Shown: positions 22,326 through 58,726 of the stretch, in pieces
How the letters are laid out: each line of letters opens with the position of its first letter
How positions within the stretch are numbered: position 1 is the first letter of the stretch
The notes under the pieces: generated by a model
Databases searched by the model: none
The model's input: only the letters and a program-made list of their open reading frames with translations
What the model was told of the DNA's origin: nothing
Program-made: the position numbers and the translations under genes
Source: a virus
Reading direction: 5' to 3' (one strand)
Length of the DNA stretch: 64,000 nucleotides
Virus record (IMG/VR): IMGVR_UViG_3300046791_000499
Location: 79,094 to 143,093 of that record

Positions 22326-22351
22326 GACCGCTCAGGAAGTTGGCGGATTCC
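22326..22351 (-). promoter_or_regulatory. ECF-type promoter GGAAT-N18-GTC
   Basis: 9 nt before GTG 22316. Confidence 0.7.
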
Positions 22352-22655
22352 TGGCGGCCACATGAGCATCCAGGTCACGAATGCGGCGTCGGATCTCGTC
22401 GCGCCCATCGTATGCGTGGACCGTCTCCCGCCCATTGGCGATGGACCACGAGATGTTGTCAGTGGCTTGCTGCTCGAGCGCGACAAGCCGCTCGCGCTCG
22501 CGGATCTCGACCGGTACAACCACCGCCAGCCGAGTTGCTCGGCGCTCGGCGATCCTCCGCGCACGCTGCCGAGCCCGACGCCACCGGCGAAGGTCTGGGT
22601 CGACGAGCAGCCAGACGAGTAGGCCCGCGGCGAGGATGACCAACTGCTCGAGCAT
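22332..22655 (-). CDS. Hypothetical membrane-anchored protein
   Basis: N-terminal hydrophobic helix. Confidence 0.45.
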   Translation of the reverse strand: MLEQLVILAAGLLVWLLVDPDLRRWRRARQRARRIAERRATRLAVVVPVEIRERERLVALEQQATDNISWSIANGRETVHAYDGRDEIRRRIRDLDAHVAARNPPTS

Positions 22656-22743
22656 CAATACGGCTCCCACCAGAGATGGCCCCACAGCCACGCGATGTCA
22701 CTGCTGACGTGCACGGGCTCTCGCTGGAGTAGCTGGTACGGCG

Positions 22744-22992
22744 TCATGCTCGTGCTCGTCGGCTCGCGTGCGCGATGATCCCATCGTAGGTCTCGCGCAT
22801 CTCGTCTTCGGTGTAGTTGCGAGAGTCCCACTCGTTGGTGCCACCCTCGCGGGCGTACCTCTCGTGTGAAGCCCGGAACATGTCGCGCCACTTCTCGAAC
22901 CCGAGCCCGCGCAATTCCTTCACACAGTCTGGTCCGTCGTCGATCTCGCGCAGGTACCTGGCGATGGCCTCGTGAACGGTCAGCCTGCTCAT
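22744..22992 (-). CDS. Hypothetical protein
   Basis: ATGA-coupled ORF. Confidence 0.5.
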   Translation of the reverse strand: MSRLTVHEAIARYLREIDDGPDCVKELRGLGFEKWRDMFRASHERYAREGGTNEWDSRNYTEDEMRETYDGIIAHASRRARA

Positions 22993-23255
22993 GGTTCGAT
23001 CTCCCGTGCTCGGCAGCCATGCCACTTCCCACCCGGCTGCTCCAAGAACAGGCTCTCGCCCGACTTGGCTGCGACGGTCCACTCCTCGCCCTTGCATCGC
23101 ACGACCTCACCGACCTCATAGGTCCGAGCAGCGCGGTTGTCGATCCACTGCTGGACCTTCCGGGCTTGCGGTGGGATCCGCCAGAGGCACAGCATCCAGC
23201 CGAGTGCGTAGTCGGTAACCTTCGCCGCGGTGGTGAGCACACGCCTGCCGATCAT
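22989..23255 (-). CDS. Hypothetical protein (small SH3-like)
   Basis: YEVGEVV; ATGA coupling. Confidence 0.5.
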   Translation of the reverse strand: MIGRRVLTTAAKVTDYALGWMLCLWRIPPQARKVQQWIDNRAARTYEVGEVVRCKGEEWTVAAKSGESLFLEQPGGKWHGCRAREIEP

Positions 23256-23653
23256 GACCCGACCTCCATTGCCGCCATGGCCTCGAGCACGTCGAGTTCG
23301 CTGGGTGCGTAGCCTCGGACATGTGCGACGCGGATCATAGCGATGATCACCCGCATCATTCCGCGGCCGTTGTCGTCTTGGGCGTCTTGCTCGGCCCACT
23401 CCGGGGTCTCGGTCTCGTGGCTGGGGACCCCGCCGACGGACCTTGCCCACGCTTGCACGTGCGCCCACGTCACGCCGGCCTGGCTTACGTCTGCAGGTTC
23501 GACCTTGACGCGACGACGGTGCCACTCGCGATCGGCGAGCAGGGCTGCGATGGCGTCAGCGGCAAGGCTTCCCCACGGTGGAGGCAGGTCGCCGCGCACG
23601 TAGATGCGCAATTGATCCACGTCGTGAAGCGTCATCTTCTCGGGCTCGATCAT
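23252..23653 (-). CDS. Hypothetical protein, paralog of 23650-24102
   Basis: RVKVEP...LDVLEAMA. Confidence 0.55.
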   Translation of the reverse strand: MIEPEKMTLHDVDQLRIYVRGDLPPPWGSLAADAIAALLADREWHRRRVKVEPADVSQAGVTWAHVQAWARSVGGVPSHETETPEWAEQDAQDDNGRGMMRVIIAMIRVAHVRGYAPSELDVLEAMAAMEVGS

Positions 23654-24102
23654 GGCTGGATCTCCGCTCCGGCCATGGCATCGAGTACGTCGAGCGGCGG
23701 CTGGCCTTCCACCTTGGCGACTGCATTCACGAGCGTGGCCATGATGCCGGCGAAGTCAGGCGCATCGGTGAGCTGCGGGATCCGAACATCTCGGCCGCGC
23801 TTCTCCAAGAGCACCATGGTGGTCAGGTCACCGCGACGGGCTTCGATTCGGTTTCCCCAACCAATTTCAAGTAGGTGCGCTTCGACGCGGTGAGGGTCCA
23901 GCCATGCGGCATCGTCTGGCTCCACCTTGACACGAGCGCGGAGCCGCGTGATCAAGGCCGCCTGAGCGTCGACGAGCGAGAGCAGTTCGCGGGTCTCGAC
24001 GTCAGCGAAACATCCTGGAACGGCTATCTCGCACAACCGTCGGATGACATCGAGCCGCTCGGCGTTCGGGACGGGCAGCGGAACCTTGGGCTTGCGCGTC
24101 AT
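23650..24102 (-). CDS. Hypothetical protein, paralog of 23252-23653
   Basis: RVKVEP...LDVLDAMA. Confidence 0.55.
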   Translation of the reverse strand: MTRKPKVPLPVPNAERLDVIRRLCEIAVPGCFADVETRELLSLVDAQAALITRLRARVKVEPDDAAWLDPHRVEAHLLEIGWGNRIEARRGDLTTMVLLEKRGRDVRIPQLTDAPDFAGIMATLVNAVAKVEGQPPLDVLDAMAGAEIQP

Positions 24103-24347
24103 GGATACGCCGCCTGGTCGATCTCGACGTGGCCAAGGTAGCGCGCCTGGTACTCCTGGCTGACCATGAGCGTATCCGGCCTTCCGGTCCAAGTAGCGAC
24201 GACCTTGGGGTAGATGCCCTGCTCTCCGATCGGGTGCGTCACGAGCAACACAGCGCCAGCGAACTCGATGAGATCACCACGGGTCAGCCACGATGCGGCG
24301 CGTGCGTGACTGGTTTCGATCTTCGCGGTTGGCATTGGTTCGGCCAT
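24099..24347 (-). CDS. Hypothetical protein
   Basis: Promoter upstream; ATGA coupling downstream. Confidence 0.5.
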   Translation of the reverse strand: MAEPMPTAKIETSHARAASWLTRGDLIEFAGAVLLVTHPIGEQGIYPKVVATWTGRPDTLMVSQEYQARYLGHVEIDQAAYP

Positions 24348-24355
24348 GTTGGGCC

Positions 24356-24380
24356 AACCGCTTCGAGCGCGGCTTATTCC
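24356..24380 (-). promoter_or_regulatory. ECF-type promoter GGAAT-N17-GTT
   Basis: 8 nt before ATG 24347. Confidence 0.7.
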
Positions 24381-24387
24381 TGGCCGC

Positions 24388-24855
24388 TCAGTCGAAGCGC
24401 TTCCCGATCTTCATGCCGGTTCGCGTGCGGTCGATCGACGTCACAGCCGCAGCCAACGCGCGGACATCGGACCGACGCTTCACCCGGCCGCCGCGGGGCT
24501 GATGGTGCGTGACGATTGCTGCTTCGATGACCTCATCGTCCGAGCAGCCGAGGCCGCGCATCTTGGCGATGACCTCCCCGAACGTGTCCGCCTCGAGCGA
24601 GTCGTCGCCAACGAGGATCTGAAATCGCGGCTCGGGTCCAAGGCTGCGGTAGGGATCAGTCTGCGCCTTGCGGATCCGCGCTCGGGCTCGCCTGCGAGAC
24701 CACGCCAGCCACAGCCGTTGACGCAGCACTTGGATCGCCAGCCATGCCGCGCCGAACAACTCGGCCAGATCAGCGCCATCGCTTGTGCACCGGCACCGGC
24801 CGGTCGGCTCACCCGTCTTCCACCCCTGGCCGCAGCCCTCGCAGCGGACGCTCAT
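24388..24855 (-). CDS. Hypothetical protein
   Basis: ATGA-coupled; N-terminal CxxC. Confidence 0.45.
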   Translation of the reverse strand: MSVRCEGCGQGWKTGEPTGRCRCTSDGADLAELFGAAWLAIQVLRQRLWLAWSRRRARARIRKAQTDPYRSLGPEPRFQILVGDDSLEADTFGEVIAKMRGLGCSDDEVIEAAIVTHHQPRGGRVKRRSDVRALAAAVTSIDRTRTGMKIGKRFD

Positions 24856-25202
24856 TTCGGTGGCAGCCCCTGCGCCGCACGCTTCGCGGGGTTCGGCGAG
24901 ACCGGGCTGATGGTCCCGTTGCGCAGTCCGGCGCCGAGCGCATCGATCACCACGGACAGGCAGAAACTACCGTCGATACGGAAGGCGCGTTCGTCCGCAC
25001 CCCACGTTCGGTCCGAGTCGCCGCTCGCCGTGGTCCAGTCTGCGAAGGTGTAGGGCCCCGCGCCGAGATGCGCTTTCATCCCGATCACGAGGAACGTCAC
25101 CACCTGGTTCCCACATACAAATACCGCATGCTGGGAGAAGCCTTGCGCATCCTCTTTGCGGGCCGTCTCGACCCTGGCGAGCGTCCAACTTGGCGTGGTC
25201 AT
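24852..25202 (-). CDS. Hypothetical protein
   Basis: Promoter upstream; ATGA coupling. Confidence 0.5.
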   Translation of the reverse strand: MTTPSWTLARVETARKEDAQGFSQHAVFVCGNQVVTFLVIGMKAHLGAGPYTFADWTTASGDSDRTWGADERAFRIDGSFCLSVVIDALGAGLRNGTISPVSPNPAKRAAQGLPPK

Positions 25203-25210
25203 GCGGTCAC

Positions 25211-25236
25211 GACCGGCCAGGCCAGCCGCTCATTCC
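25211..25236 (-). promoter_or_regulatory. ECF-type promoter GGAAT-N18-GTC
   Basis: 8 nt before ATG 25202. Confidence 0.7.
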
Positions 25237-25490: not shown

Positions 25491-25492
25491 GG

Positions 25493-26020: not shown

Positions 26021-26021
26021 G

Positions 26022-26528: not shown

Positions 26529-26537
26529 GTGTCGGCC

Positions 26538-26563
26538 AACCGCGAAGCTACTTGCCAGATTCC
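26538..26563 (-). promoter_or_regulatory. ECF-type promoter GGAAT-N18-GTT
   Basis: 9 nt before ATG 26528. Confidence 0.7.
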
Positions 26564-27456: not shown

Positions 27457-27482
27457 TACCCAAGAGCCCCGCGGGTTCTTCC
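27457..27482 (-). promoter_or_regulatory. ECF-type promoter variant GGAAG-N18-GTA
   Basis: 9 nt before ATG 27447. Confidence 0.5.
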
Positions 27483-27485
27483 CGG

Positions 27486-28505
27486 TCATTCGCCCAACAT
27501 GGCGACCCAGGTGTTCCCGTCGACCACACCGGTCTCGGGCAGCGCCATCTCGCGCTGGAACGCCTTCACCGCGTCGAGCGTCTTGGGGCCCGGGAGCCCA
27601 TCCGGGAAGCCTTCGTCGTCCACGAGCCCATCGGGACCGAAGCCCCAGGCGAGCAGCAAACCTTGGATCTCTTTGAGATGCTGGTCGACGGTGCCCTTGG
27701 TCAAGGTCGCGACCGACACGACGTGGAAGATCCCGCCGGTCCGTCGGGGCACGGGCGGCAGGACCGGGTGAGACGTGGCCAGGCAGGCGAGGAACTCGAT
27801 CACGTCATCATCCTCCATGACCGAATTGATGGTCCAGTAGCAGACGCGCTTGATGCCGGCTGCGACCACGTCATCGATGCATGGCTGCATCGTGGAGACC
27901 GCGTCGTCGGCCTGCTTGTACCCGGCCAAGCCCATGATCCACCCCTCGACCGGCTCGCCGTACCGTTCCCGCCATTCACCGAGGCTGTAGGTGACGACCT
28001 TGTCGGGGCTCGACTGGCTCTCCTCGGTTGCGTAGGACTGGGGCGACCAGACGACGCAGACCTTGGCGAGTTCGACCAGCTCGGTGAGCGCGGCCCCGAT
28101 GCCCGACAGCCCCAGCCGCGGGAACACGCGCTCGGCCTTCGCTGCCGCCGCCGCGTAATCGAAGCACCCGGTGGCGTCGCACCACGGCCCCTCGGCGTCC
28201 CACATGAGCAGGGTGGCGCCCGTGCTGGCGATCAAGCCGGGCAGCACGGCGAGGGCCCCGTCCATGAACAAGTCGTGGGGCATGATCCACGACGTCAGGT
28301 GGACCTCGATACCGGCGTCGCGGCACGCCTTGGCCATCGCGTTGATCTTGTCAACCGGAAACGTCGAAAACGCCGTAGGCCCACGAGCTTTCAAGAAGTC
28401 GTTGAGCATCAAGTTGGCCACCTTTACCTTGGCGGCCTGCAGATTTCGGATCGTCTCCGCTGGGTCAGAGAAGCAGGATGATGGTAGCCAGGCGTGTACT
28501 CGCAC
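27486..28505 (-). CDS. Endolysin-like protein: glycoside hydrolase-like domain + C-terminal peptidoglycan-binding domain
   Basis: IQGLL...DGLPGPKTLDAVKAFQREMALPETGVVDGNTW (PG_binding_1); WDAEGPW and PQSY motifs. Confidence 0.75.
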   Translation of the reverse strand: MRVHAWLPSSCFSDPAETIRNLQAAKVKVANLMLNDFLKARGPTAFSTFPVDKINAMAKACRDAGIEVHLTSWIMPHDLFMDGALAVLPGLIASTGATLLMWDAEGPWCDATGCFDYAAAAAKAERVFPRLGLSGIGAALTELVELAKVCVVWSPQSYATEESQSSPDKVVTYSLGEWRERYGEPVEGWIMGLAGYKQADDAVSTMQPCIDDVVAAGIKRVCYWTINSVMEDDDVIEFLACLATSHPVLPPVPRRTGGIFHVVSVATLTKGTVDQHLKEIQGLLLAWGFGPDGLVDDEGFPDGLPGPKTLDAVKAFQREMALPETGVVDGNTWVAMLGE

Positions 28506-31925: not shown

Positions 31926-31951
31926 GACCGCGCTCGCGCCCCGCTCATTCC
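31926..31951 (-). promoter_or_regulatory. ECF-type promoter GGAAT-N18-GTC
   Basis: 9 nt before ATG 31916. Confidence 0.7.
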
Positions 31952-31966: not shown

Positions 31967-31991
31967 GGAATGCCAGCGATGCTGGATGGTT
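31967..31991 (+). promoter_or_regulatory. ECF-type promoter GGAAT-N17-GTT facing the portal gene
   Basis: Divergent from 31926-31951; no start codon at the usual 8-10 nt. Confidence 0.5.
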
Positions 31992-32142: not shown

Positions 32143-34401
32143 GTGCGCGACGCTCGGCAGGATGGACTCGTCAATGCGGTCACCGGTCTCGGGGACGACG
32201 AGATCGACCTCCGGCTGCACACCCACCGGATCCCGTCGTATCAGCGATCGGTCTACGAGTACGAGTCGGAGTGGCGCGACAACGCCTACGCCCAACGCGA
32301 GGTCAGCCAGGTTTCTGGCGACATCTTCCGCGAGGGGCTCGACCTCATCAACGTCAAACCCGAAGCGATCGACATCGGCGCTCTCAAGAGCTGGCTCGAG
32401 GGGGACACTACTCCCAACCCCGACGGATCGATCAACCGCACGGAGGGCCTGCTCAATTACGCAGAAAAGCTCATCGAGCAGGGTGACAAGGTCGGCGGGG
32501 CTGCCCTCTACGTGATCGTCGACGACGGCTTGGATCCCGTCCACCCGCTCGACTGGCGCCGGATCCAGCGGGTCGTCGCCTGGGTCGTCCTCGATCGGTC
32601 CGAGATCGTGCCCTACATCTCCGAGGGCATGGGCATGGAGCCCGAGTATTGGATGCTTTCCGACGTGCTCTCGACCGCGAAGGTCCAGGGCGGCAAACGG
32701 CAAGCGCTGCGGCCCGGTCAGGTCATCCATCACACCCGGCTTTGGCGACACAAGGGGATCCCGCTGAGCGCCCGCGAGGAACGACTCCGGCAGTTCTGGG
32801 GCGGGTCCGTGCTCGAGGTCAACTGGGATGCCCGCCGCGCGATCGAGGAGGGGACCACCTACGCGAACACCTACCTCCATCGCGCCAGCATGATCCACGT
32901 GTCGCTCGCCGAACTGAACGAGATCTACGGGGCCAAGGATCCAGAGACTGGACAGGAGATCGGGACCGAAGTCATCGACCGGCGCATGCGGCAGTTCCGG
33001 CGCATTGCCTCGACCTTGGACATCATGCTGACCGATGGCGGCCGGCAGGGGTCGAAGTCGTCTGACGGGCTCACGGAAATCCAAGGCCGCAACCCGGACA
33101 AGGTCGAGAGCGTCGTCGAACGCACCGGTGATCTGATCCCGATCGTCGAGTTGAACCGGACCCAATGGCAGAGCGGCTGGGGGGCCCCGCGCGAGATCGC
33201 ATTCGGCGAGCAAACGAGCGCCCTGCGTGGTGGCGACAGCAAAGGGGCTTGGCAGTCCTGGCAAGGTACGATCGATCTCAAGCGCAAGAAGAAGCGCGTC
33301 ATCGGCTTGGTCAACTGGATGCTGACGATCACGTTCGCCTCCCGCGAGGGCCCGACGCACGGCTTGATTCCCACGCAATGGGAGCAGCAATGGCGCCCGC
33401 TTCATGTCCCGTCGGCGATGGAGAAGGCCACGATCGACAAGGCCCGTGCCGACGCCGACAACGCCAGGATCGGGACGCAGGTGGTCACGGCCGAAGAGGT
33501 CCGGCAGCAGCGGATCGTCAACGGCGACGTCGAAGGTCAGCTCACCGTCACCGAAGTGCCGAACTCCGAGAAGGTCACGATCGTCCCGCCAGCTCATGTC
33601 GGTATCGCCAAGGCGATGCTCGACGGTGCGATGGCCGTTGCGACTGGCCAGATCACCAAGGAGTTCTACGCCCGGTACCTGCTGGCGATCGACGGCGCGC
33701 GGTTCACCGAAGAGGAGGCCAATCGCATCGCCGATCAGGCGGCGGCTGGGATCGTTCCGGGAGCGGCGGCGGCCGAGGTCACCACCGACTCGGCGTCTCC
33801 CGTTACCGCGGCCACCGTCATGGCTTCGGGGGGCCAGGTTGCGCAGGGCAAGATGGCCCCGGAGTTCTTCGAAGAGGCGCTGCAGACCCTCGACCCCGAG
33901 CAGTTCGATCCCGAGACGGCAGCTCGGCTGCGCGCGGCAGCGGAAGGGAACGATCCTGACGCGCCCGCGCTCCCGCCCGACGCCCCGCTGGTCGCCCCAG
34001 TTGGAGCAGCCACGGCAGTCGCACCAGCCCTGCCGACGACCGACGCCGCGACGCCCGAGGGTCAGCCATCGCCCGCCCCAGCCGCGCCCATCGAGCCCAA
34101 GGCCAACCCCTTCGCCGTACTCGCCGAGATCCCCGACGATCTCATGACACCCGAGCAGATCGTGGCGGAGATCAAGCTACGCACGCCGCTCCCGATCACC
34201 ACTCGCCACGTCCATGCGATCGCCAAGAAGCACGCGGTCAGGCGCGGGAAGATCAGCGGGGTCACGGGGTACTCGGCCGGCGACGTCGCCACCGCGCTCG
34301 CTCGCGACAACGGGCTACTCCCGCCGGCTGCCGAAGTCGACGAACCCGTGGTCGATGAGTCGCTGGTCGATGGTGGCGAGCCAGAGCCCCTGGTCGAGTA
34401 G
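32143..34401 (+). CDS. Portal protein (DUF1073-type) with long C-terminal extension
   Basis: DGLVNAVTGLG start, IHHTRL...WGGSVL, W-x-x-x-WRPL...EEVR; GTG 32143 lies 7 nt after a TAGGCT -10-like box. Confidence 0.85.
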   Translation: MRDARQDGLVNAVTGLGDDEIDLRLHTHRIPSYQRSVYEYESEWRDNAYAQREVSQVSGDIFREGLDLINVKPEAIDIGALKSWLEGDTTPNPDGSINRTEGLLNYAEKLIEQGDKVGGAALYVIVDDGLDPVHPLDWRRIQRVVAWVVLDRSEIVPYISEGMGMEPEYWMLSDVLSTAKVQGGKRQALRPGQVIHHTRLWRHKGIPLSAREERLRQFWGGSVLEVNWDARRAIEEGTTYANTYLHRASMIHVSLAELNEIYGAKDPETGQEIGTEVIDRRMRQFRRIASTLDIMLTDGGRQGSKSSDGLTEIQGRNPDKVESVVERTGDLIPIVELNRTQWQSGWGAPREIAFGEQTSALRGGDSKGAWQSWQGTIDLKRKKKRVIGLVNWMLTITFASREGPTHGLIPTQWEQQWRPLHVPSAMEKATIDKARADADNARIGTQVVTAEEVRQQRIVNGDVEGQLTVTEVPNSEKVTIVPPAHVGIAKAMLDGAMAVATGQITKEFYARYLLAIDGARFTEEEANRIADQAAAGIVPGAAAAEVTTDSASPVTAATVMASGGQVAQGKMAPEFFEEALQTLDPEQFDPETAARLRAAAEGNDPDAPALPPDAPLVAPVGAATAVAPALPTTDAATPEGQPSPAPAAPIEPKANPFAVLAEIPDDLMTPEQIVAEIKLRTPLPITTRHVHAIAKKHAVRRGKISGVTGYSAGDVATALARDNGLLPPAAEVDEPVVDESLVDGGEPEPLVE

Positions 34402-34402: not shown

Positions 34403-34428
34403 GGAATCCGCCCGCGCATCGGACGGTC
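34403..34428 (+). promoter_or_regulatory. ECF-type promoter GGAAT-N18-GTC
   Basis: 8 nt before GTG 34437. Confidence 0.7.
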
Positions 34429-40212: not shown

Positions 40213-41205
40213 TCATCGATCCGGCCAGTAGGCTGCCGGGCTCTCGTGGTCGGGGCGGTTCGCGGCAAGCCACGCCTTGCACTCGGCGACCGCTTGATCT
40301 TTCAGCTCGTCGTGGCGGTCCCACCATGCACGATGGGCCTTCGTCTGCTCGGGATCCGAAGGCCGCTCGCTCGGGATGGGCAGGTCGACACGGTGCTCGG
40401 CCGTGAACAGGACCGCGTCGAGCATCCGGGCTTGGATGGCCGCCACCGCGTCCTTGCACTGGTCCTCCTTCCACTGACCGCGGGCTCGGCCTTGGGCTTC
40501 GAGCGCCTCGTTCAAGTCATCTTCGAGCCGTACCGCCCGCACCCGATCGACCACGCAAAAGCGCACGACCGTGTTGCGCTCGTACACGTCGCGAGAGTCG
40601 ATGCTGTACTCCTCGATCCGATACCGGCGCACCGCGTTGTATAAGATGGCGTCCCGATCCCAAAAGCCGGACTTGTAGAAGAACGACCCGCGCCGGTTCC
40701 CCAAGGCGTCGAGGATGTTGCTGTGCATGCCGTGGCTCGTGCGCTGTTTGGTCCAGCCGGCCGGCATCGTCACGGGGCAGAACAGCTTGTCGTCGGCGAA
40801 CTGCTCGCCGAACACGAAGCCCAGCGCCTCGTAGTCCGCTCGGACCTTGGAGTCACGCGGGTACGGCAGCGTCTCGCTCGCGACGGCTTCGCTCTGGCCT
40901 TGGGCGATCTGGACGTCGAAGGCGTCGGGGCCGATGGCCATCGCCATCATGGTGAAGGTCCCGATCGCGCCCGGGGTTTGAGTGTTGGTTGGTCGACTGG
41001 TCTCGGTCATGCCGGTCCCAACAGCCGAGCCGTCGTCGCATTCCCCGAAGCGCTTGAACGCGCGGTGCTCGAGCGCGCAGGCGAGGCATTGCCCAACGTG
41101 AGCGGCGATCGGCGATGTGAGCGGGCGCCCGAGCAGCCGGCTGGCCTCGCCACCCAGCGCAGGATCCGTGCACCCGATCGGTGCGTCGGCGGAGCCCACG
41201 GTCAT
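40213..41205 (-). CDS. Hypothetical protein with N-terminal HxxxCxxC (zf-HC2-like) segment; possible second start ATG 41010
   Basis: AHVGQCLAC; downstream domain FFYKSGFWDRDA. Confidence 0.55.
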   Translation of the reverse strand: MTVGSADAPIGCTDPALGGEASRLLGRPLTSPIAAHVGQCLACALEHRAFKRFGECDDGSAVGTGMTETSRPTNTQTPGAIGTFTMMAMAIGPDAFDVQIAQGQSEAVASETLPYPRDSKVRADYEALGFVFGEQFADDKLFCPVTMPAGWTKQRTSHGMHSNILDALGNRRGSFFYKSGFWDRDAILYNAVRRYRIEEYSIDSRDVYERNTVVRFCVVDRVRAVRLEDDLNEALEAQGRARGQWKEDQCKDAVAAIQARMLDAVLFTAEHRVDLPIPSERPSDPEQTKAHRAWWDRHDELKDQAVAECKAWLAANRPDHESPAAYWPDR

Positions 41206-43331: not shown

Positions 43332-43364
43332 CTATTATGTACCGCCGCGCAGGATATACAATAG
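43332..43364 (-). promoter_or_regulatory. Quasi-palindromic sigma70-like promoter TTGTAT-N16-CATAAT
   Basis: Third copy of the 59.1/61.1 kb element. Confidence 0.7.
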
Positions 43365-43408: not shown

Positions 43409-45151
43409 TCACTTCCGCAGCTCTCGCCCGAGCACGACCTGCTTGTCGGCCACGTCGTCCATGAGCCCGAGCCCGCGTAGCTTGGTCATGGCGTTCCTGA
43501 ACGTGCCCGAAGTCGCACTCAGGCCGGCGCGGAATGCTGCCGTCTCCCGGGTGACCGGTTCGCTCGTGGCAGCCAGGACCTCGAACAGCCGGCGGTGCGC
43601 GCCTCCGAGCTTGCCTGCCCAGAACTCGAGCAGTTTCGCGCCGGTGGGCAGGGGCGTGAAGGTGCCCGCGTACTTGCGCTTGGCCTCCGCGCTGGCCTCG
43701 AGCATGCCGGTCGAGACGTCCACGAGCAGGGGCGGTGTGGCACCACGCAGCGTGGTCATCGCATTGCGGAAGGTGCCCGACTTTGGGGAGAGGCCGGCGA
43801 GCAGAGCGGCTCGGGTCCTGGTGACGGGCTTGCCGACTTGGAGCAGTACGGTCAGCACACGGCTTGGAGCGCCGCCAAGATCGCCGGGCGTGGTCTTGAC
43901 CGGCTTCTCGTCGGGCGCGGCGTTGCGTGCCCGCGACGCGCCGACGCTCACCTGCACGATCGGAGTCACCGTCGGCGGAGGCGCGATGATGCGTGGCCTC
44001 GTCGTGGCCTCGGCCATCCAGTCCGGGATCCAAGGATCCGCGATCGCTGGGCTCACATGGCGAGGCTCCGCTGGGGTGACGGCCACGGCCTGACCACCGT
44101 TGGCTCGAGTCCAGCCCTGCGCACGCTGCAGTCCGTCGACTGCCTTGGAGATGGCCTCGCTCAGCCGGGCGTTCTCCCCTCGGACCGCAAGCAGTTCGGC
44201 CTCGAGTTCGGCGACGCGCTCTTGGGCTGCGGTGTCGACCACGATGCGCACCGCTGCTGCTTCCGACTCTGGCTCTGGCACGCCGAGGTCGCCGAGCTGC
44301 GCGACAAGTTCGGCCACTCGCTTGTTCGACGCTGGGACCTGCACGAGATGCCGCGCTCCCGGTCGCACGTGCTGCGTGAGCGTCGTGTGGTTCGTCCTGA
44401 ACCTGGCCACGCCATCGAAATTGAAGGCCGAGCCGCTCGCCATGAACTCGCCGGGCAGCAGCCCTTGGAGCGTCGACCACTTGCTCTTGCCCTCGAACCC
44501 GAGGATCGCCGACGCGCGGGTGAGGTCGAGGTCCTGCGCGAACCTGCCGACCATGAGGTTGTTGGCCTCGGCGGCGGCGTCCTTCGCCAGCTTGGAGAAC
44601 CGCTGGGTCGCGAGGATGCCTCCGAACCCGCGCTTGCGCCCCGAGTCCATGAGGTCGATGACGGCCTGCCTGCTCTCCGCCTTGCCCGACTCTGGCGCGA
44701 ACCGGTGGGCTTCGTCGATCACGATCAGCCGAGGTCGCCACAGAGCACGCGGTGCGGCGAGCAGCCCTTCGATGAACAGCCGCAAGTAGAGCCGCTTGGC
44801 GTCCAGGGTGAGGTCGCTCAGATCCAAGATGGCCGAGCAGTTGAGTTCGAGCAGGCGCAGGGCGAGCCGCATGGCCGTGCTCGGGTCCGCGACGATGTCA
44901 CCCTCGCGCTTGCCTCCGACGAGCACCGCGTTGACGTGCGTGCGCAGGCTGGCGTACTCGCCCTCGGGGTCGACGATGGCGACGGGGATCCGGTTGGCCA
45001 GGCCCTCGATCAGCAGGCGCAACGCTTGGCTCTTGCCGCCGCCCGAGTTCGCGCACAGCAGCAAGCGGGAGACGGTCAGCTCCAAGGGGTCGACGGTGAC
45101 GATCGTCTCGGCGCCGGGCGGGGTCAGGACGATGGGCTCGCGGGTGATCAT
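43409..45151 (-). CDS. HerA/FtsK-like (DUF87-type) P-loop ATPase with tandem C-terminal wHTH-like repeats
   Basis: Walker A ANSGGGKS, DPEGEY, Walker B IVIDEAH, GRKRG, ATQR. Confidence 0.85.
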   Translation of the reverse strand: MITREPIVLTPPGAETIVTVDPLELTVSRLLLCANSGGGKSQALRLLIEGLANRIPVAIVDPEGEYASLRTHVNAVLVGGKREGDIVADPSTAMRLALRLLELNCSAILDLSDLTLDAKRLYLRLFIEGLLAAPRALWRPRLIVIDEAHRFAPESGKAESRQAVIDLMDSGRKRGFGGILATQRFSKLAKDAAAEANNLMVGRFAQDLDLTRASAILGFEGKSKWSTLQGLLPGEFMASGSAFNFDGVARFRTNHTTLTQHVRPGARHLVQVPASNKRVAELVAQLGDLGVPEPESEAAAVRIVVDTAAQERVAELEAELLAVRGENARLSEAISKAVDGLQRAQGWTRANGGQAVAVTPAEPRHVSPAIADPWIPDWMAEATTRPRIIAPPPTVTPIVQVSVGASRARNAAPDEKPVKTTPGDLGGAPSRVLTVLLQVGKPVTRTRAALLAGLSPKSGTFRNAMTTLRGATPPLLVDVSTGMLEASAEAKRKYAGTFTPLPTGAKLLEFWAGKLGGAHRRLFEVLAATSEPVTRETAAFRAGLSATSGTFRNAMTKLRGLGLMDDVADKQVVLGRELRK

Positions 45152-46085: not shown

Positions 46086-46111
46086 TACCGCGACCGAGCG
46101 TGCCGTCTTCC
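46086..46111 (-). promoter_or_regulatory. ECF-type promoter variant GGAAG-N18-GTA
   Basis: 9 nt before ATG 46076. Confidence 0.5.
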
Positions 46112-46852: not shown

Positions 46853-46878
46853 GGAATCGGGCCCGCGGCACGGCGGTC
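46853..46878 (+). promoter_or_regulatory. ECF-type promoter GGAAT-N18-GTC
   Basis: 9 nt before ATG 46888. Confidence 0.7.
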
Positions 46879-47731: not shown

Positions 47732-47790
47732 GTCCCGTCAACCTCGGGTCCCGCGTCCGATTCCCTGGACCTCGTACCTGCCTCGGAGCA

Positions 47791-49143: not shown

Positions 49144-49169
49144 GACCTGCGCGGAGGTCCGTCTATTTC
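49144..49169 (-). promoter_or_regulatory. ECF-type promoter variant GAAAT-N18-GTC
   Basis: 8 nt before ATG 49135. Confidence 0.55.
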
Positions 49170-49602: not shown

Positions 49603-49628
49603 GACAGCGCGTGCGTGGCGACTATTCC
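49603..49628 (-). promoter_or_regulatory. ECF-type promoter GGAAT-N18-GTC
   Basis: 10 nt before ATG 49592. Confidence 0.6.
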
Positions 49629-50874: not shown

Positions 50875-51354
50875 TCAACCGGCCTCGCCCTGTGACATTC
50901 CCGCCGAATGCAATGGGCATGGCTTGCCTACCAACTGCTCGAACTCGCACCCGCGGCAGTCACCCTCGACCGGCGTGGTCCACGAATACCCATCGGCCGC
51001 GTCTGTGATCACGGTCTCGTCGGTCTTGCACGAGCACTCGACGCGGTGCGCTGGGTCGACCGGTCGCCAGTAGTGACGAGCGACACCGGGATGATGGTTG
51101 TCCTGCTCCGCGCCGACCATGCCGAAGGCTCGGAGAGCGCGCCGGAGTTGCTTCGGCTTCGCCCGCTTGCCGCCTGCTCCGATCGATATGTGCCATTGCG
51201 GACCTGCCCCGTTGCCGTCAGGGTACTCGGCGTTGGCGAGCGCGGACAGCACGACGATCGAACCGAGTCGCCAGGCGCTCGAGGTCATCGACGGGCGTCC
51301 ACCTGGCCAGTCGATCTCTTCCCATTCGAGCGGGTCCGGTCGCAGTTCTCGCAT
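50875..51354 (-). CDS. Hypothetical phage protein
   Basis: QWHISI...EQDNHHPGVARHYW; start ATG 51354. Confidence 0.6.
   Translation of the reverse strand: MRELRPDPLEWEEIDWPGGRPSMTSSAWRLGSIVVLSALANAEYPDGNGAGPQWHISIGAGGKRAKPKQLRRALRAFGMVGAEQDNHHPGVARHYWRPVDPAHRVECSCKTDETVITDAADGYSWTTPVEGDCRGCEFEQLVGKPCPLHSAGMSQGEAG
50877..50901 (-). promoter_or_regulatory. ECF-type promoter GGAAT-N17-GTT
   Basis: 10 nt before ATG 50866. Confidence 0.7.
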
Positions 51355-51362: not shown

Positions 51363-51388
51363 GACCAGGGAGCAAGCGCCGGGATTCC
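51363..51388 (-). promoter_or_regulatory. ECF-type promoter GGAAT-N18-GTC
   Basis: 8 nt before ATG 51354. Confidence 0.7.
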
Positions 51389-53208: not shown

Positions 53209-53466
53209 TCAATTCGCAGGTTCTGGGTTCGGGTTGCCCGAGCGGGCGAGTAGTTCGAGCCAGGTTCCGGGCCCGTGGGACTCGGTCAACTCGGCAGCCC
53301 ATCGCATGTTTCGGGCGTAGCGGGCGGACTGCTCACTGCTGCCTCGACCTCGGCGGGCTTCAAGCTCCCACCATCGGGCACGGCGGCGGTAGTCATCGCG
53401 GGTTCGAGGCGTCGCCAGCATCGGACCGATCCGGCGCTGAGCTTCGGTGATCTGCTCGTCTGTCAT
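53209..53466 (-). CDS. Small hypothetical protein
   Basis: ATGA-coupled. Confidence 0.4.
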   Translation of the reverse strand: MTDEQITEAQRRIGPMLATPRTRDDYRRRARWWELEARRGRGSSEQSARYARNMRWAAELTESHGPGTWLELLARSGNPNPEPAN

Positions 53467-54212
53467 CGCAGCAACTGCTCCAATCGGTTCATGAACTGGG
53501 CACTGATCGTCGGGTCTGTGGCTGGCCCATGCGCAGCGAGGATGACGTACTGCTCCGCGACCTCGCGAACCACCGCTTGCCAGTCCTCCCCCTCGCGTGG
53601 GTGAAACAAATGCAGCGTGCCGGCGATCTCGATCCTGGCCTCGATCGCTGCGCTGACCTGCTCGGGCGGAAGGCCGATCGGGTTCGGCAGCACGCGGTCC
53701 TGCGCGCCGGGCTGGTAGAGCAGGGCCTCTTGGTGAAGCGAAACATGGTCCGCCCACTCGACGGCTGGATGTTCGTTCACGAAGGCGACGATGGCCGGTG
53801 CGTTCTCGGTCCCGACGAGATGCTCGGCGATCGCCACGAGGATCCCGGCCTCGAGCGCCGACCGATCCGGCGTCTTGATCGGACCGAGGTCGTCGCCGAC
53901 GTAGCCCTCGGGGCTGTCATGGATCAATCCCGCAAGGGTGAGCCCGATGATCGTGAGGGCATGTTCGATCTTGATGAGGTCGCGTGCTCGCAGCCACCAA
54001 TACACGAGCCGACCGACACGCATCGAATGCGACGCGCCCGACTGCGGGTGAGGACACTCGGAGGGGTCGAGCAACTGCCCATTGAATCGGGTCACCCCAC
54101 GGCGAAGGCCGCGAGCGACGTCCGGTAGATGGACAGCATTCGCCTTGGGATTGACCGGATCGAAGCACCGGCCGGAGCCTGTTGAGATGGACGTCGGAGT
54201 CGGAAGGAGCAC
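53463..54212 (-). CDS. HD-domain phosphohydrolase (YfbR/YfdR-like deoxynucleotidase)
   Basis: TGSGRCFD, RFNG, SHS, LIHDSPEGYVGD..PIK, WAD. Confidence 0.8.
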   Translation of the reverse strand: MLLPTPTSISTGSGRCFDPVNPKANAVHLPDVARGLRRGVTRFNGQLLDPSECPHPQSGASHSMRVGRLVYWWLRARDLIKIEHALTIIGLTLAGLIHDSPEGYVGDDLGPIKTPDRSALEAGILVAIAEHLVGTENAPAIVAFVNEHPAVEWADHVSLHQEALLYQPGAQDRVLPNPIGLPPEQVSAAIEARIEIAGTLHLFHPREGEDWQAVVREVAEQYVILAAHGPATDPTISAQFMNRLEQLLR

Positions 54213-54220: not shown

Positions 54221-54246
54221 AACAACGCCGCGACCAGCGGCATTCC
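54221..54246 (-). promoter_or_regulatory. ECF-type promoter GGAAT-N18-GTT
   Basis: 8 nt before GTG 54212; directly downstream of the sigma gene. Confidence 0.7.
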
Positions 54247-54250: not shown

Positions 54251-55024
54251 CTACGCCGCCATCGCGAGCGAGTCGAGTTGCGCGGTCAGTTCTTCGAGCA
54301 CCATGTCGTGGTCCTTGGAATCGGTGACGTCGAGCAGGACAGCAAGGCGAATGACCTCGGCCTGAGCGGGCCGGCGTCCGCGGGTCGTCATGCGCTCGCC
54401 GGCAGGCGAGGCACCTTCGCTGAGCAGTTCGATCTCGGCCGCGTGAGCGTGGAGGATCTTGTGCAAGAGCTTCCGGCCCCGATAGATCCTGCTCATGATC
54501 GTGCCGATCGGGCAGTCCATGATCTCGGCGATCTCTTTGAGCGAGAGCCCGTCGAGATCGACGTAGGCAACCGCGTCGCGGTAGTTGGCCGGCAACAGGG
54601 CGAGCGCGTTGCGGATCATCTGCTGCGTCATCGCGGCGCACACAGCCTCCTCGGGTCCAGGCGGTTGGCTGGTCGAGTTCGCCACCGCAACCGACGAACC
54701 GAGCGAGCGCATCTGCGAGCTGACCGAATCATGGAACTCGCGCTGCCGACCTCGACGGTGGTAGCCGTTGATGAAGGTGTTGCGCAGGATCGTGAACATC
54801 CACGCTTTGATGTTGCTGCCTTCGTCGAACGTGTCCCAGAATCGGAAGGCACGGACGAACGAGTCCTGCACGAGATCCTCGGCTTCGGCTGGGTCGCGAG
54901 TCAGGCGCATCGCGGCACCGTACAGACTGTCGCCGAGCGGGAGCGCCAGCGCTTCGAACCGACGACGATCGGCGGCGGACATGACTCGACAACGAGAATG
55001 GTCTTGGGCTTCGGTGGCGGACAT
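54251..55024 (-). CDS. ECF sigma-70 factor (SigR/SigH/RpoE-like)
   Basis: LYGAAMRLTRDPAEAEDLVQD...KAWMFTILRNTFIN (region 2); EIAEIMDCPIGTIMSRIYRGR (region 4). Confidence 0.95.
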   Translation of the reverse strand: MSATEAQDHSRCRVMSAADRRRFEALALPLGDSLYGAAMRLTRDPAEAEDLVQDSFVRAFRFWDTFDEGSNIKAWMFTILRNTFINGYHRRGRQREFHDSVSSQMRSLGSSVAVANSTSQPPGPEEAVCAAMTQQMIRNALALLPANYRDAVAYVDLDGLSLKEIAEIMDCPIGTIMSRIYRGRKLLHKILHAHAAEIELLSEGASPAGERMTTRGRRPAQAEVIRLAVLLDVTDSKDHDMVLEELTAQLDSLAMAA

Positions 55025-55102
55025 GTGTGAAGCGTATCCCAGATCCAGCCCGAGTATTCCCAAACTGATCACGAAACTTGATCGGGCCGTGTGCGACAAC
55101 CG

Positions 55103-55498: not shown

Positions 55499-55507
55499 GA
55501 TCGCCTA

Positions 55508-55533
55508 GACCGCCGCCCCGCGCTCGGCATTTC
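55508..55533 (-). promoter_or_regulatory. ECF-type promoter variant GAAAT-N18-GTC
   Basis: 9 nt before ATG 55498. Confidence 0.55.
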
Positions 55534-56082: not shown

Positions 56083-56399
56083 GACCGTGCCTCGGAGCGC
56101 ATCGCCCGGAAGCGCTCGCACATGGTCCGACCGTGCTCGACATCGACCGCAGCTCCGACGTAGAGCCCACGGCGATCGTCCTCGGTGTCGAGGTAGTAGC
56201 GCGCCGACGGAACATCGAGGCGGATGGCGACCTCGAGATCCCACACCGGCAGCGGCTTGGGATCCGGCTTGCTGCTGGACCCGCGGAAGGTGACAGCCTC
56301 GGACTCCGAGCCGTCATCGTGAAGCACGGTCCAGTGCCGGACACCCTCGGCGGCGTCATGGTGGATGAAGTACCCGATCGGGTTGGATGAAGTCGTCAT
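56079..56399 (-). CDS. Hypothetical protein
   Basis: ATGA-coupled. Confidence 0.5.
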   Translation of the reverse strand: MTTSSNPIGYFIHHDAAEGVRHWTVLHDDGSESEAVTFRGSSSKPDPKPLPVWDLEVAIRLDVPSARYYLDTEDDRRGLYVGAAVDVEHGRTMCERFRAMRSEARS

Positions 56400-56442
56400 G
56401 GATGCTCTGTCGCGTAAGGTGGCGGATCGATCCCCGGAATTC

Positions 56443-56470
56443 GACGGCGCGGGTTTGAGCCGCGCCGTCC
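56443..56470. terminator. GC-rich intergenic hairpin (possible terminator)
   Basis: GACGGCGCGG/CCGCGCCGTC 10-bp stem; no clear U-tract. Confidence 0.4.
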
Positions 56471-56478
56471 AGGTCGAC

Positions 56479-56892
56479 TCAGCGCGGCGTGCCCCAGTCC
56501 GTGCGCATGACGAACTTGACGGTGCGCGAGCGCTCGCCGGTCGGGTCGACGTAGCTGCAGCCGTGCTCGCCAAAGAGCTTGCCGCCAGTCATGTGGATCG
56601 TGCCGGTCTTGTCGAACACGCGCTCGGACACCCGTGACGTCTCGGCAACCGACTCGCCCCAGCCGAGCATCAGCCAGCCCACCGAGTCACGGTCCGCCAC
56701 GACGCCGGCAAGTTCGGCGACGGTCTCGCGGACGTTGCGGGTTTCCCATCCGCCGATCGCGTTGGCGAGCAGGAAGTGCGGACGGTCGAGGTCGTGCGCG
56801 AGCAGCAGTTCTCCGGTCTCCATGGAGTAGAAGTCGACGTAGTTGCGGCGGGTGGAAGAGGTCTCGGCTGTCTCGGTCGCGGCTGCTTGCAT
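56479..56892 (-). CDS. Hypothetical early protein (leaderless)
   Basis: ATG 6 nt after TACATT -10. Confidence 0.6.
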   Translation of the reverse strand: MQAAATETAETSSTRRNYVDFYSMETGELLLAHDLDRPHFLLANAIGGWETRNVRETVAELAGVVADRDSVGWLMLGWGESVAETSRVSERVFDKTGTIHMTGGKLFGEHGCSYVDPTGERSRTVKFVMRTDWGTPR

Positions 56893-56927
56893 GTTTTCAA
56901 TGTAGCCGCACGCCGCACGCAGATCAA
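56890..56927 (-). promoter_or_regulatory. sigma70-like leaderless promoter TTGATC-N17-TACATT
   Basis: Shares 19 identical bp with 61008-61026. Confidence 0.7.
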
Positions 56928-56954
56928 TAGGCTGGCGAAAGAATTCGGAGATCG

Positions 56955-57458
56955 TCAGCCGGGGGCGTGGTGCCGGCGTAGCTTCTCGGCCGCGCGCTCG
57001 AAAGCGCCCCGCTCGGAGCCCCAGAGCATCGGCCACCCGATCGACTTGGCCGCAGGGCAGAATGTGGCGACGCATGCGAACAGAGCCTCGCCATCGGTCA
57101 CCCCGCCCGAGGGCCGGTTCTCGAACCACTCGACTGCCTTGGCCAAGGTCTCGGGCGAGCCATCCCACACGCGGCTGCGCTCGAGATCGGCGAAGGCGTT
57201 GGCCGTTCGGATCTCGCGGTCGCTGCGGAGATCCTTCGTGGGGCGAGGCAGGATCGCGGACTCCTCGGCGAGCTGCGCGAAAGCTCGAAGTTCGGCCGCG
57301 CTGTAGTCGTGCTCGCCTGTGGGCGTGACCGTGCCGCTCTCGACCCACGCCACGTGGCCACTCACGTGCATCCACAGGCAAGGTGCTCGGCTGCCGTCGG
57401 TGGTCTCCGGCGTCCACCCGAGGCCGGCGAGAACGGCCCGTGGACTGGCGGCGCTCAT
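56955..57458 (-). CDS. Hypothetical protein
   Basis: ATGA-coupled. Confidence 0.5.
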   Translation of the reverse strand: MSAASPRAVLAGLGWTPETTDGSRAPCLWMHVSGHVAWVESGTVTPTGEHDYSAAELRAFAQLAEESAILPRPTKDLRSDREIRTANAFADLERSRVWDGSPETLAKAVEWFENRPSGGVTDGEALFACVATFCPAAKSIGWPMLWGSERGAFERAAEKLRRHHAPG

Positions 57459-57802
57459 GAGCACACCAGGCAGGTAGCGATGGTGCGGACCATGTCGAGG
57501 TCACCGCGCTCGGCGGCCAGGGCGAGGAGGTCACCGACGTGTCGACGGTGCTCGCGGTTCTCGAGGTCGCAATCCTCCGTGAAGCGCTCGAGGTACTCGG
57601 GCAGCGCGTCCAGGGCACGGACGGCAGCGAGGTCGAGCATCCCCGTGGGCGGGCTCGCGGCGTTGCTCAGGGCAGCGGCGCCATCCCAACCGGCTTGCCA
57701 CTCGCGGATGATGTCGACGGCCTTGTATCGGCACGAGTGCCGCGGCTCGTTGTCGGCGAAGGCGGTCGCGCCTTGCCTTCGATACTTGCTGACTTCGGTC
57801 AT
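57455..57802 (-). CDS. Hypothetical protein (Rmf-like W-x-x-GW motif)
   Basis: G-x-x-AF...C-x-Y...EWQAGW. Confidence 0.5.
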   Translation of the reverse strand: MTEVSKYRRQGATAFADNEPRHSCRYKAVDIIREWQAGWDGAAALSNAASPPTGMLDLAAVRALDALPEYLERFTEDCDLENREHRRHVGDLLALAAERGDLDMVRTIATCLVCS

Positions 57803-58692
57803 GGCGTGGCCAACCGCGTGCGCGCATCGGCGATTCCGGCGTCTTTGATCCCGAGGACGTTTCGGGCACAGTCGCACCCGAACCAGAACCCGTGCTCTAT
57901 GCCTGCATTGTTGGCGATCAAGATCGGCACGAACCTCCCCGATGGGATGCGCTTGCCGCATGCTTCGCAGTCACGGTCCGAGAACCGACTCGAACCGAAC
58001 ACCGTGCCCGGCGGCCACTTCACGAAATAGACCTTGACCATCTTGGGGGCACCATCGGACTGGAACAGGAGCGCGAAACTCGTGTCGCGATCCTGTTCCC
58101 ATCGCCAGCCGATCGGGGCCATCCGACGTGTGGCCAGGTTGAGATCGAGCCCGATGGCGAGCAGCGTCTCGGTGACCTTGGGGCTCACACCGATCTCCGT
58201 GTAGACAGGCAGCGGACGGCTGGCGTCCAGGTCGGTGTAAATATCGCGTAGGGCGACCATGAGCCGCAGCCACGCGCGGGTCACATCGACAGCGATCCTC
58301 GGTGCGATGGCTCGCAGGTCGTCATCCGTCGCTACGTCCAACTCATCGGCGCGCAGGTGCTTACCGTATTGGACCGCGAAGTAGACCCGATATAGCGCTT
58401 GGCTACGCATGTCGTTATGCGCCAGGCCAGGACTTTTCAGGTGTTTGCTGGCGATACCTTTGTTGATGCCCTTGTCCGCGCGCTGCCGGGCTCGGCCCAC
58501 CCAGGTGCCTTGCGTGATGCTCTCGCGGATAACCGCGATGCTCTCGAGGAACGCGGCCAAGCGCGCGCCACCGAAGAACCCGGCGATGATGGCGACGTCT
58601 CCATCATCGGGGCCAGGCACCGCGACGACGTCAAAGGCCGCGCGGTGCAGCGCCATTCCGCGCTCGAGCGCCGTCGGTTTCGTGTCTTGCAT
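57799..58692 (-). CDS. Hypothetical protein with C-terminal CxxCG...GCDC Zn finger
   Basis: CEACGKRI...FGCDCA. Confidence 0.65.
   Translation of the reverse strand: MQDTKPTALERGMALHRAAFDVVAVPGPDDGDVAIIAGFFGGARLAAFLESIAVIRESITQGTWVGRARQRADKGINKGIASKHLKSPGLAHNDMRSQALYRVYFAVQYGKHLRADELDVATDDDLRAIAPRIAVDVTRAWLRLMVALRDIYTDLDASRPLPVYTEIGVSPKVTETLLAIGLDLNLATRRMAPIGWRWEQDRDTSFALLFQSDGAPKMVKVYFVKWPPGTVFGSSRFSDRDCEACGKRIPSGRFVPILIANNAGIEHGFWFGCDCARNVLGIKDAGIADARTRLATP
57812..57837 (-). promoter_or_regulatory. ECF-type promoter GGAAT-N18-GTT
   Basis: 9 nt before ATG 57802; embedded in upstream CDS. Confidence 0.7.
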
Positions 58693-58701
58693 GGCGGGGC
58701 C

Positions 58702-58726
58702 AACCGAAGCCGCGGCGGTTCATTCC
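58702..58726 (-). promoter_or_regulatory. ECF-type promoter GGAAT-N17-GTT overlapping an 11-bp-stem hairpin (58708-58736)
   Basis: 9 nt before ATG 58692. Confidence 0.65.

Follow-up and report, generated by a model that had tools for sequence, protein, structure and literature searches.

A SigH-type sigma factor and predicted leaderless promoters in a phage that probably infects Nannocystaceae

Does a phage that carries its own extracytoplasmic function (ECF) sigma factor use it to transcribe most of its genome, and are the resulting mRNAs leaderless? This question is raised by a stretch of 64,000 nt, here called the window, which forms the final 64 kb (bases 79094-143093) of the 143,093-bp IMG/VR record IMGVR_UViG_3300046791_000499. 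A gene for an ECF sigma factor lies there among many copies of a bipartite motif, GGAAT followed after 17 or 18 nt by GTC or GTT, that stand shortly before start codons. All coordinates are those of the window unless stated otherwise. The record is classed as complete, with terminal repeats, and the GC content of the phage is 64-70%. Matches in PHROGs to tail sheath, tape measure, major head protein, prohead protease, portal and large terminase identify it as a phage of the myovirus type. No near-identical record was found by megablast against a phage collection, and scans of viral contigs with single proteins (major capsid, terminase) gave no relatives.

To define the motif, a core site was set as GGAAT-N17/18-GTY and a full site as a core site with an ATG or GTG 8-10 nt after GTY. 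Genes were called over the whole genome with a codon-usage model trained on the long open reading frames (ORFs) of the phage and independent of the promoter motif. Genome-wide motif counts were compared with first-order Markov simulations and the window count with shuffles. The window contains 22 exact core sites, whereas 5.1 +/- 2.3 were obtained in the shuffles, and the whole genome contains 47 for 12.6 +/- 3.5 expected. Full sites number 32 genome-wide, with an expectation of 1.2 +/- 1.1. The distance from GTY to the start codon peaks sharply, with 11 sites at 8 nt, 17 at 9 nt and 4 at 10 nt for about 1.4 expected per offset, and at 30 of the 32 starts an ORF of 82-422 aa opens, mostly with a positive coding score. 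The motif is strand-specific and co-oriented with the genes downstream.

When the sites were aligned, the -35 box read c-G-GGAAT and the -10 box C-G-G-T-C/T, followed by G. A position weight matrix (PWM) derived from the alignment finds 36 sites scoring 16 or more, compared with 0.5 in simulations, and the promoters of the regulon range from 14 to 26. The length of the spacer covaries with the -10 box: all seven N17 sites carry GTT, and 22 of the 25 N18 sites carry GTC. Hairpins in the spacers were not significantly enriched (p=0.10). The original prediction, which had been made from the letters of the window, had proposed many promoters so close to start codons that the mRNAs would be leaderless, with positional enrichment before starts, and these counts bear out both. 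All 17 sites that it placed before start codons are present (13 exact on the strands given, 4 variants read directly), and its list omitted two exact sites with leaderless geometry, at 41020-41044 and 47740-47764, both on the minus strand.

What this spacing would mean for transcription can be taken from the open-complex structure of Mycobacterium tuberculosis (Mtb) SigH, in which the -35 element GGAAYA occupies positions -34 to -29 and GTT positions -11 to -9, that is GGAAY-N18-GTT-N8-(+1) (PMC6411747). With this geometry, a start codon 8-10 nt after GTY has its first base at +1 to +3, and the predicted 5' untranslated region (UTR) of the first gene would be 0-2 nt long. At 25 of 30 promoter-led starts a C at -1 is combined with a purine at +1. 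Transcription starts generally prefer a pyrimidine at -1 and a purine at +1, and the preference seen here fits a transcription start on the codon. Shine-Dalgarno 4-mers were found at 4 of the 30 promoter-led starts, equal to the background of 11% and in line with the expectation that these starts have none, whereas they precede 64 of the 171 other phage genes (37%); stop-start coupling was found for 95 of those 171. Most first-gene mRNAs of the phage should be leaderless.

The sigma factor itself has the two domains of an ECF sigma, Pfam Sigma70_r2 (residues 57-118 of the 282-aa frame) and Sigma70_r4_2, without region 3 and with a tail of about 60 aa beyond sigma-4. In the public annotation the gene begins at Met15 (54982), the position at which the cellular orthologues also begin. 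The protein passes the TIGR02937 sigma70-ECF model (84.3 bits, cut-off 42.9) and stays below the cut-off of TIGR02947 SigH_actino (163.3 bits, cut-off 251.55), which is still its best-scoring NCBIfam model. The nearest solved structure is Mtb SigH (PDB 5zx2_F, E=1e-40). To map the promoter contacts, the published contacts of SigH were transferred onto the alignment of the phage sigma with 5zx2_F. All three base contacts to the -35 element are identical (SigH/phage: R186/R182, S182/S178, M181/M177), as are seven contacts to the -10 element (N92/N86, I91/I85, I85/I79, W81/W75, N88/N82, F72/F66, N77/N71). Changes in the -10 pocket are SigH T76 to S70 in the phage, within the specificity loop, and Y83 to F. 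That the phage encodes an ECF sigma with SigH/SigR-like promoter specificity, as originally proposed, is thus upheld by the domains, the nearest structure and the kept contact residues. In Mtb SigH any base change in GTT abolishes activity, T-9 included (PMC6411747).

The closest cellular homologues are proteins of Enhygromyxa, Pseudenhygromyxa and Nannocystaceae metagenome-assembled genomes (MAGs), with 66-72% identity. Further homologues were found in two viral contigs, G001 (94.9 kb, 63% identity) and G002 (89.4 kb, 58%). In a maximum-likelihood tree the three phage sigmas are nested in a Nannocystaceae clade (support 100/99), which stands apart from the sequences of Myxococcaceae, Polyangiaceae and Actinomycetota. 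They do not group together within it, although its inner branching lacks resolution. This sigma clearly derives from a host orthologue and is a recent copy, as the idea of a captured sigma had implied. The likeness to Streptomyces SigR therefore stands for promoter specificity and falls for ancestry, the relatives being Myxococcota and not actinobacteria. An actinobacterial host, as the SigR analogy would suggest, is ruled out by the taxonomy of the homologues and by the tree. Because the sigma phylogeny places this one gene among them, the probable host belongs to the Nannocystaceae (Myxococcota).

ECF sigma genes are usually autoregulated. At 55 of 80 cellular orthologue loci GGAA[TC]-N17/18-GTY was found in the 330 nt that precede the sigma gene, where about 1 of 80 is expected by chance (our own arithmetic from the genome background rate). 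This identifies the motif as the cognate promoter of the family to which the phage sigma belongs. At the Nannocystaceae-type loci L004-L008 the sigma gene begins 11-18 nt past its own -10 box and has no ribosome site, so that the natural 5' UTR would comprise only a few nucleotides; in Myxococcaceae the orthologues are preceded by leaders of some 130 nt or longer. The stop codon of the cellular sigma gene is overlapped by a downstream gene whose product, an anti-sigma of 309-329 aa, has a zf-HC2 (ZAS) domain at its N-terminus, and in two Nannocystaceae-type genomes these neighbours are the top PF13490 matches. A search of the three phage genomes with PF13490 (zf-HC2) gave no match.

The arrangement recurs in G001 and G002, which have no recognisable homologues of the terminase and sheath of this phage and share few accessory genes with it. 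Full-geometry sites number 15 in G001 and 10 in G002, again with offsets peaking at 8-10 nt, and a reversed-pattern control gave 0. Full sites make up 62-75% of the core sites in the three phages but 10% in 1.1 Mb of cellular loci, a background taken from a metagenome scan with distant cellular homologues among the matches listed. Host-like genomes of 8-12 Mb contain 15-37 full matches each. In these genomes the numbers at offsets of 8-10 and 13-15 nt are similar (15 vs 12, 37 vs 27, 17 vs 22 and 20 vs 22), whereas in this phage they are 32 vs 1. Since the spacing excess is present in the phages and absent from the host-like genomes, the promoter-on-start-codon design is a feature of the phages and not of a host regulon. 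The sites of G002 are almost only of the N17-GTT type, and G001 has both N17-GTT and N18-GTC types. A link between Ser or Thr in the specificity loop and the preference for GTC or GTT was considered and dropped, as the three phages follow no consistent pattern.

Each promoter-gene unit had also been suggested to act as a portable cassette. One promoter-led gene, 57799-58692(-), encoding 297 aa, is present together with its promoter in G001 with 77-79% identity (sigmas 63%), and a single shared pair is too little to speak of portable cassettes. It lies between the early promoter described below and the sigma gene. Pfam and PHROGs gave nothing for its product and an Atlas search was uninformative; for nearly all promoter-led genes Pfam and PHROGs were blank.

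Promoters of the ECF type head almost every strand block of the whole 143-kb genome. The minus-strand block from 31951 has internal promoters at 26563, 25236, 24380 and 22351, and in the 26-kb virion operon downstream of 22351 no further one was found. ECF-headed units include those of the portal, of the terminase (weak variant at 46111) and the 26-kb virion operon. The regulon was first thought to be a middle-gene programme. This does not hold, as virion-gene units carry the same promoters, which are found beyond the window as well. With promoters on nearly all units, the regulon is better described as everything after early. When the gaps without an ECF promoter were scanned for a second shared motif or promoter class, none was found.

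A different element, of sigma-70 type, would mark the early region and occurs in exactly three copies with TTGTRT as -35 box and TATAAT or TACAAT as -10 box. In the whole genome the hexamer TATAAT has only two occurrences, each within one of these promoters, which have leaders with good ribosome sites. The promoter at 59065-59092(-) is directed at the sigma gene, which lies 4 kb further downstream. It and its divergent counterpart are borne by a 76-nt inverted repeat (59042-59117 and 61090-61165, 88% complementary) that flanks a 2-kb segment with a DUF932 gene (59427-60599) and a 110-aa gene. The third element, at 43335-43362(+), faces the 3' end of the large terminase gene (43409-45151, minus) in antisense direction and may drive an early antisense RNA against this late gene.

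Autoregulation of the phage sigma had been suggested from a GGAAT-N17-GAT sequence in front of its gene. This site scores 1.6, far from the range of the regulon, and because any change of GTT abolishes SigH activity, direct autoregulation from it is unsupported. Overlapping with it, 6 nt in front of the sigma ATG, is TACGCT, a possible -10 box of sigma-70 type (weak evidence). With this proximal site, a strong promoter of its own is absent at the sigma gene. Positive feedback is possible through the GAAAT variant at 55508-55533, or by read-through from 58726 and 57837. A terminator-like hairpin is located just after the sigma stop codon.

Together, these data are best explained by a two-step programme, to which we assign a probability of about 0.72. 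In the first step, host sigma-70 RNA polymerase would fire from the three near-identical TATAAT-class promoters, and the one at 59065-59092(-) would read toward the sigma gene. In the second step, the phage sigma would redirect the host core polymerase to about 40 promoters of the form GGAAT-N17/18-(G)GT(C/T), which would head nearly all non-early units, including portal, terminase and virion genes. About three quarters of these promoters have an ATG or GTG 8-10 nt past the -10 box. There the SigH-type holoenzyme would start the RNA at the codon, so that the first gene of each unit would be read from a leaderless mRNA, and the downstream genes would instead use Shine-Dalgarno sites or stop-start coupling. 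The sequence itself shows the enrichment and spacing of the motif, the family and origin of the sigma, its retained DNA-reading residues, the negative search for an anti-sigma and the recurrence in other phages; the transcription start positions, the timing, leaderless translation and the reliance on the sigma of the phage instead of that of the host are inferred from it.

Several points weigh against this programme. Two thirds of the phage sites have GTC and not GTT, and in view of the need of Mtb SigH for T-9 the specificity of the family must differ somewhat; GTC is also found in some Myxococcaceae autoregulatory sites. The closest cellular loci have the motif 11-18 nt before the sigma ATG, not 8-10. 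A terminator scan stayed at chance level, and that no terminator stands between the early promoter and the sigma gene remains a supposition. RNA runs were searched for the sequence of this phage and none was listed as containing it; one wastewater run shared about 5% of its words, in contigs, which do not reveal 5' ends. The host assignment is drawn solely from the sigma phylogeny, and the programme supposes that Nannocystaceae ribosomes translate leaderless mRNAs well. Finally, the orthologous sigma of the host should read the same promoters, so that dependence on the phage copy is presumed.

This last point leads to an alternative that we regard as unlikely, in which the host's own SigH-type ECF sigma, freed from its zinc-finger anti-sigma by the stress of infection, mainly serves the promoters and the phage copy is an accessory, e.g., a decoy for the host anti-sigma, which it would titrate, or a booster. 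It would agree with the recognition of the same motif by the cellular orthologues (55 of 80 loci), with the DNA-contact residues common to phage and host sigmas and with the lack of a strong promoter at the phage gene. However, three different phages each retain a sigma of their own and an anti-sigma was not found in any of them, the sigma-70-type early promoters upstream of the sigma gene fit a cascade, and some 40 essential promoters hanging on a host stress signal would be fragile.

It is also conceivable, and to our judgement improbable, that the ECF promoters are real and their mRNAs are not functionally leaderless, with translation from downstream starts or after read-through and the spacing being a matter of compaction. 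Many promoters do lie within long co-directional blocks where read-through is likely, and some sites are leadered (31967(+) in the window and, outside it, 19646 and 31665 in genome coordinates). Compaction alone, however, gives no reason for a distance that coincides with the expected transcription start, and the offset peak is only 3 nt wide. ORFs open exactly at the promoter-spaced codons, which mostly combine C at -1 with a purine at +1 (25/30) and have Shine-Dalgarno sequences at background level, while these are enriched elsewhere. The spacing is moreover equal in phages without the terminase and sheath genes of this one. That the motif is no promoter at all but another start-associated element, such as the binding site of a phage regulator or a recombination hotspot, comparable to the start-associated sequences of some mycobacteriophages, would account for its tie to start codons and is hardly credible, as it is bipartite with exactly the boxes and spacing of SigH, recurs upstream of the cellular sigma orthologues and is strand-specific and co-oriented with downstream genes.

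The two-step programme may be extended, in a tentative and rather unlikely generalization, to several lineages of Nannocystaceae phages, each of which would have joined a copy of the host's SigH-type sigma, beside which no anti-sigma was found, with a genome-wide promoter-on-start design, leaderless translation being part of a strategy of takeover. If true, the first genes of the phage would be translated independently of Shine-Dalgarno pairing at a time when canonical initiation in the host is disadvantaged or switched off, and no earlier phage would be known to base its transcription programme on leaderless mRNAs made with an alternative sigma.

The positions of the promoters and of the sigma gene are collected in Table 1.

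Table 1. Promoter elements and the sigma factor gene in the window, with the start codon each element precedes (distance from the -10 box; product) and its matrix score.
Feature	Position	Strand	Element	Start codon or context	PWM
ECF-type promoter	22326..22351	-	N18-GTC	9 nt before GTG 22316	20.9
ECF-type promoter	24356..24380	-	N17-GTT	8 nt before ATG 24347 (82 aa)	19.8
ECF-type promoter	25211..25236	-	N18-GTC	8 nt before ATG 25202 (116 aa)	24.9
ECF-type promoter	26538..26563	-	N18-GTT	9 nt before ATG 26528 (168 aa)	20.2
Weakest variant	27457..27482	-	GGAAG-N18-GTA	9 nt before ATG 27447 (57-aa ORF)	4.3
ECF-type promoter	31926..31951	-	N18-GTC	9 nt before ATG 31916 (165 aa)	26.0
Leadered ECF-type promoter	31967..31991	+		upstream of portal gene (32143-34401)	18.0
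ECF-type promoter	34403..34428	+	N18-GTC	8 nt before GTG 34437 (97 aa)	15.0
ECF-type promoter	41020..41044	-	N17-GTT	9 nt before ATG 41010 (265 aa)	19.0
Sigma-70-type element, third, diverged	43335..43362	+	TTATGT-N16-TACAAT		
Weak two-mismatch variant	46086..46111	-	GGAAG-N18-GTA	9 nt before ATG 46076 (168 aa)	3.4
ECF-type promoter	46853..46878	+	N18-GTC	9 nt before ATG 46888 (172 aa)	20.0
ECF-type promoter	47740..47764	-	N17-GTT	8 nt before ATG 47731 (155 aa)	17.3
Variant	49144..49169	-	GAAAT-N18-GTC	8 nt before ATG 49135 (194 aa), called gene start	
ECF-type promoter	49603..49628	-	N18-GTC	10 nt before ATG 49592 (140 aa)	19.8
ECF-type promoter	50877..50901	-	N17-GTT	10 nt before ATG 50866 (414 aa)	21.0
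ECF-type promoter	51363..51388	-	N18-GTC	8 nt before ATG 51354 (159 aa)	20.0
ECF-type promoter	54221..54246	-		right after sigma stop; 8 nt before GTG 54212 (249 aa)	17.8
ECF sigma factor gene	54251..55024	-		257 aa; 243 aa if start is Met15 (54982)	
GAT site	55036..55060	-	GGAAT-N17-GAT	11 nt before sigma ATG	1.6
Variant	55508..55533	-	GAAAT-N18-GTC	9 nt before ATG 55498 (131 aa)	15.2
ECF-type promoter	57812..57837	-	N18-GTT	9 nt before ATG 57802 (115 aa)	20.8
ECF-type promoter	58702..58726	-	N17-GTT	9 nt before ATG 58692 (297 aa)	19.1
Sigma-70-type early promoter	59065..59092	-	TTGTAT-N16-TATAAT class	leader with GAGGAG ribosome site before ATG 59022	
Sigma-70-type early promoter, second copy	61115..61142	+		diverges rightward, before ATG 61166	

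The best-scoring site, 31926..31951(-), heads a minus-strand block of 43 genes and forms a divergent pair with the leadered promoter at 31967..31991(+). The promoter at 22326..22351(-) heads the unit that runs into the virion operon. That at 41020-41044(-) sits within a longer open frame (ORF 40213-41205/41679), whose gene has 41205 as a possible alternative start, in coupling with the stop codon upstream; in this case the promoter could give an N-terminally shorter isoform of 265 aa. The 155-aa ORF at ATG 47731 has atypical codon usage. In the promoter directly behind the sigma gene, 54221..54246(-), the spacer contains a terminator-like hairpin (54226-54239). The gene it leads, 53463-54212(-), encodes a protein like deoxyribonucleoside 5'-monophosphate phosphatases (phrog_318, E=6e-17), and a homologue in G002 (33% identity) is located about 3.4 kb from the G002 sigma gene, on the opposite strand.

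Sites with one mismatch are not enriched as a class (26 observed vs 28 +/- 6.5 expected). By our own arithmetic about 0.6 of them should coincide with independently called gene starts, and 8 of the 26 do, among them those before 49135 and 55498, the latter being the start of the gene directly upstream of the sigma gene. Only variants that coincide in this way are credible. Both GGAAG-N18-GTA variants deviate at two positions and are weak. That at 46086..46111 would head the unit holding the terminase gene. The site at 27457 is doubtful, as its ORF has 57 aa and an alternative start at 27489 overlaps the upstream stop (translationally coupled).

Some further observations concern single loci. 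The minus-strand virion operon is interrupted by a gap of 600 nt (19083-19685) holding an opposite 111-aa ORF (19329-19664, +), with a sigma-70-like TTGCGC-N18-TAGAAT upstream at 19293; the gap gave no Pfam match and no repeat elsewhere in the genome. In G001 (G001:C1:63516-63792(-)) an ECF-type promoter lies directly before a 91-aa ORF of which two pieces match residues 4-50 and 159-189 of the terminase of this phage with 63-68% identity; this ORF is a packaging-gene fragment under its own promoter. The contig L009 (JALOAI010000024.1, 89,231 bp), assigned to a 'Pigmentiphaga sp.' MAG, is essentially phage G002 with the promoter sites at shifted coordinates, and its place in that MAG is probably a binning artefact, not host evidence.

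How does this system compare with known ones? Phage sigma cascades are textbook biology. In phiEco32 (gp36) and Salmonella phage 7-11 (gp47) the early genes have host sigma-70 promoters, and a sigma-70-family factor of the phage then brings the host core polymerase to a conserved phage promoter in front of middle and late genes; 6-8 promoters were mapped, the sigmas are very divergent and gp36 has no region 4 (PMC8948821). The present phage likewise combines sigma-70-type early promoters, a later phage promoter and a sigma gene, here as judged by sequence only. In contrast to phiEco32 and 7-11, for which start-codon coupling is not reported, about 40 promoters are placed for leaderless mRNAs, and the sigma is a recent host-derived orthologue with the identity to cellular proteins given above. 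It is unusual that such a sigma appears to control nearly the whole genome and not a handful of late operons. Sigma-70 or ECF genes are also annotated in other large phages, namely the Rhizobium RHph_I46 group, Sinorhizobium phiM9 (rpoE) and Bacteroides DAC phages, and in tblastn searches these proved to be distant relatives of the phage sigma (29-33% identity). Literature searches gave no promoter set or leaderless architecture for them, no comparable phage sigma/leaderless system and no description of sigma factors in myxophages.

The closest functional counterparts are Mtb SigH and Streptomyces SigR, of the ECF12 type, which are also two-domain ECF sigmas with GGAAY-N18-GTT as target and a start about 8 nt past GTT. 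As with these sigmas and their anti-sigmas RshA and RsrA, the cellular orthologues of the phage sigma are autoregulated and paired with a zf-HC2 anti-sigma, which is much longer than RsrA. Unlike SigH and SigR, the phage sigma is below the TIGR02947 cut-off, belongs to the Nannocystaceae clade and has T76 replaced by S; its sites are mostly GTC and its targets are phage genes and not a thiol-stress regulon. A further unusual point is that the host ECF sigma copied here has cellular orthologues with an anti-sigma partner, while no gene for the inhibitor was found in the phage. If confirmed, the system would offer a compact orthogonal module of promoter, sigma and leaderless expression for use in high-GC Myxococcota, a natural setting in which to ask why and when it pays to translate without a leader, and a sequence signature by which phages of the Nannocystaceae, of which to our knowledge almost none are cultured, could be recognised.

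With respect to leaderless expression, 47% of the mRNAs of Deinococcus deserti begin exactly at the initiation codon (PMC4007540), and lambda cI, transcribed from PRM, is a leaderless phage mRNA (PMC10491246). In Deinococcus, Actinobacteria and lambda cI, as in the phage described here, the -10 box stands at a fixed short distance from AUG or GUG and a Shine-Dalgarno sequence is absent. However, those systems use the housekeeping sigma with a -10 box of the TANNNT type, whereas here an ECF promoter is coupled to the start codon. In difference to Deinococcus and Actinobacteria, and unusually, this coupling is specific to the phages: it is found in all three of them and is not seen on the host-like chromosomes.

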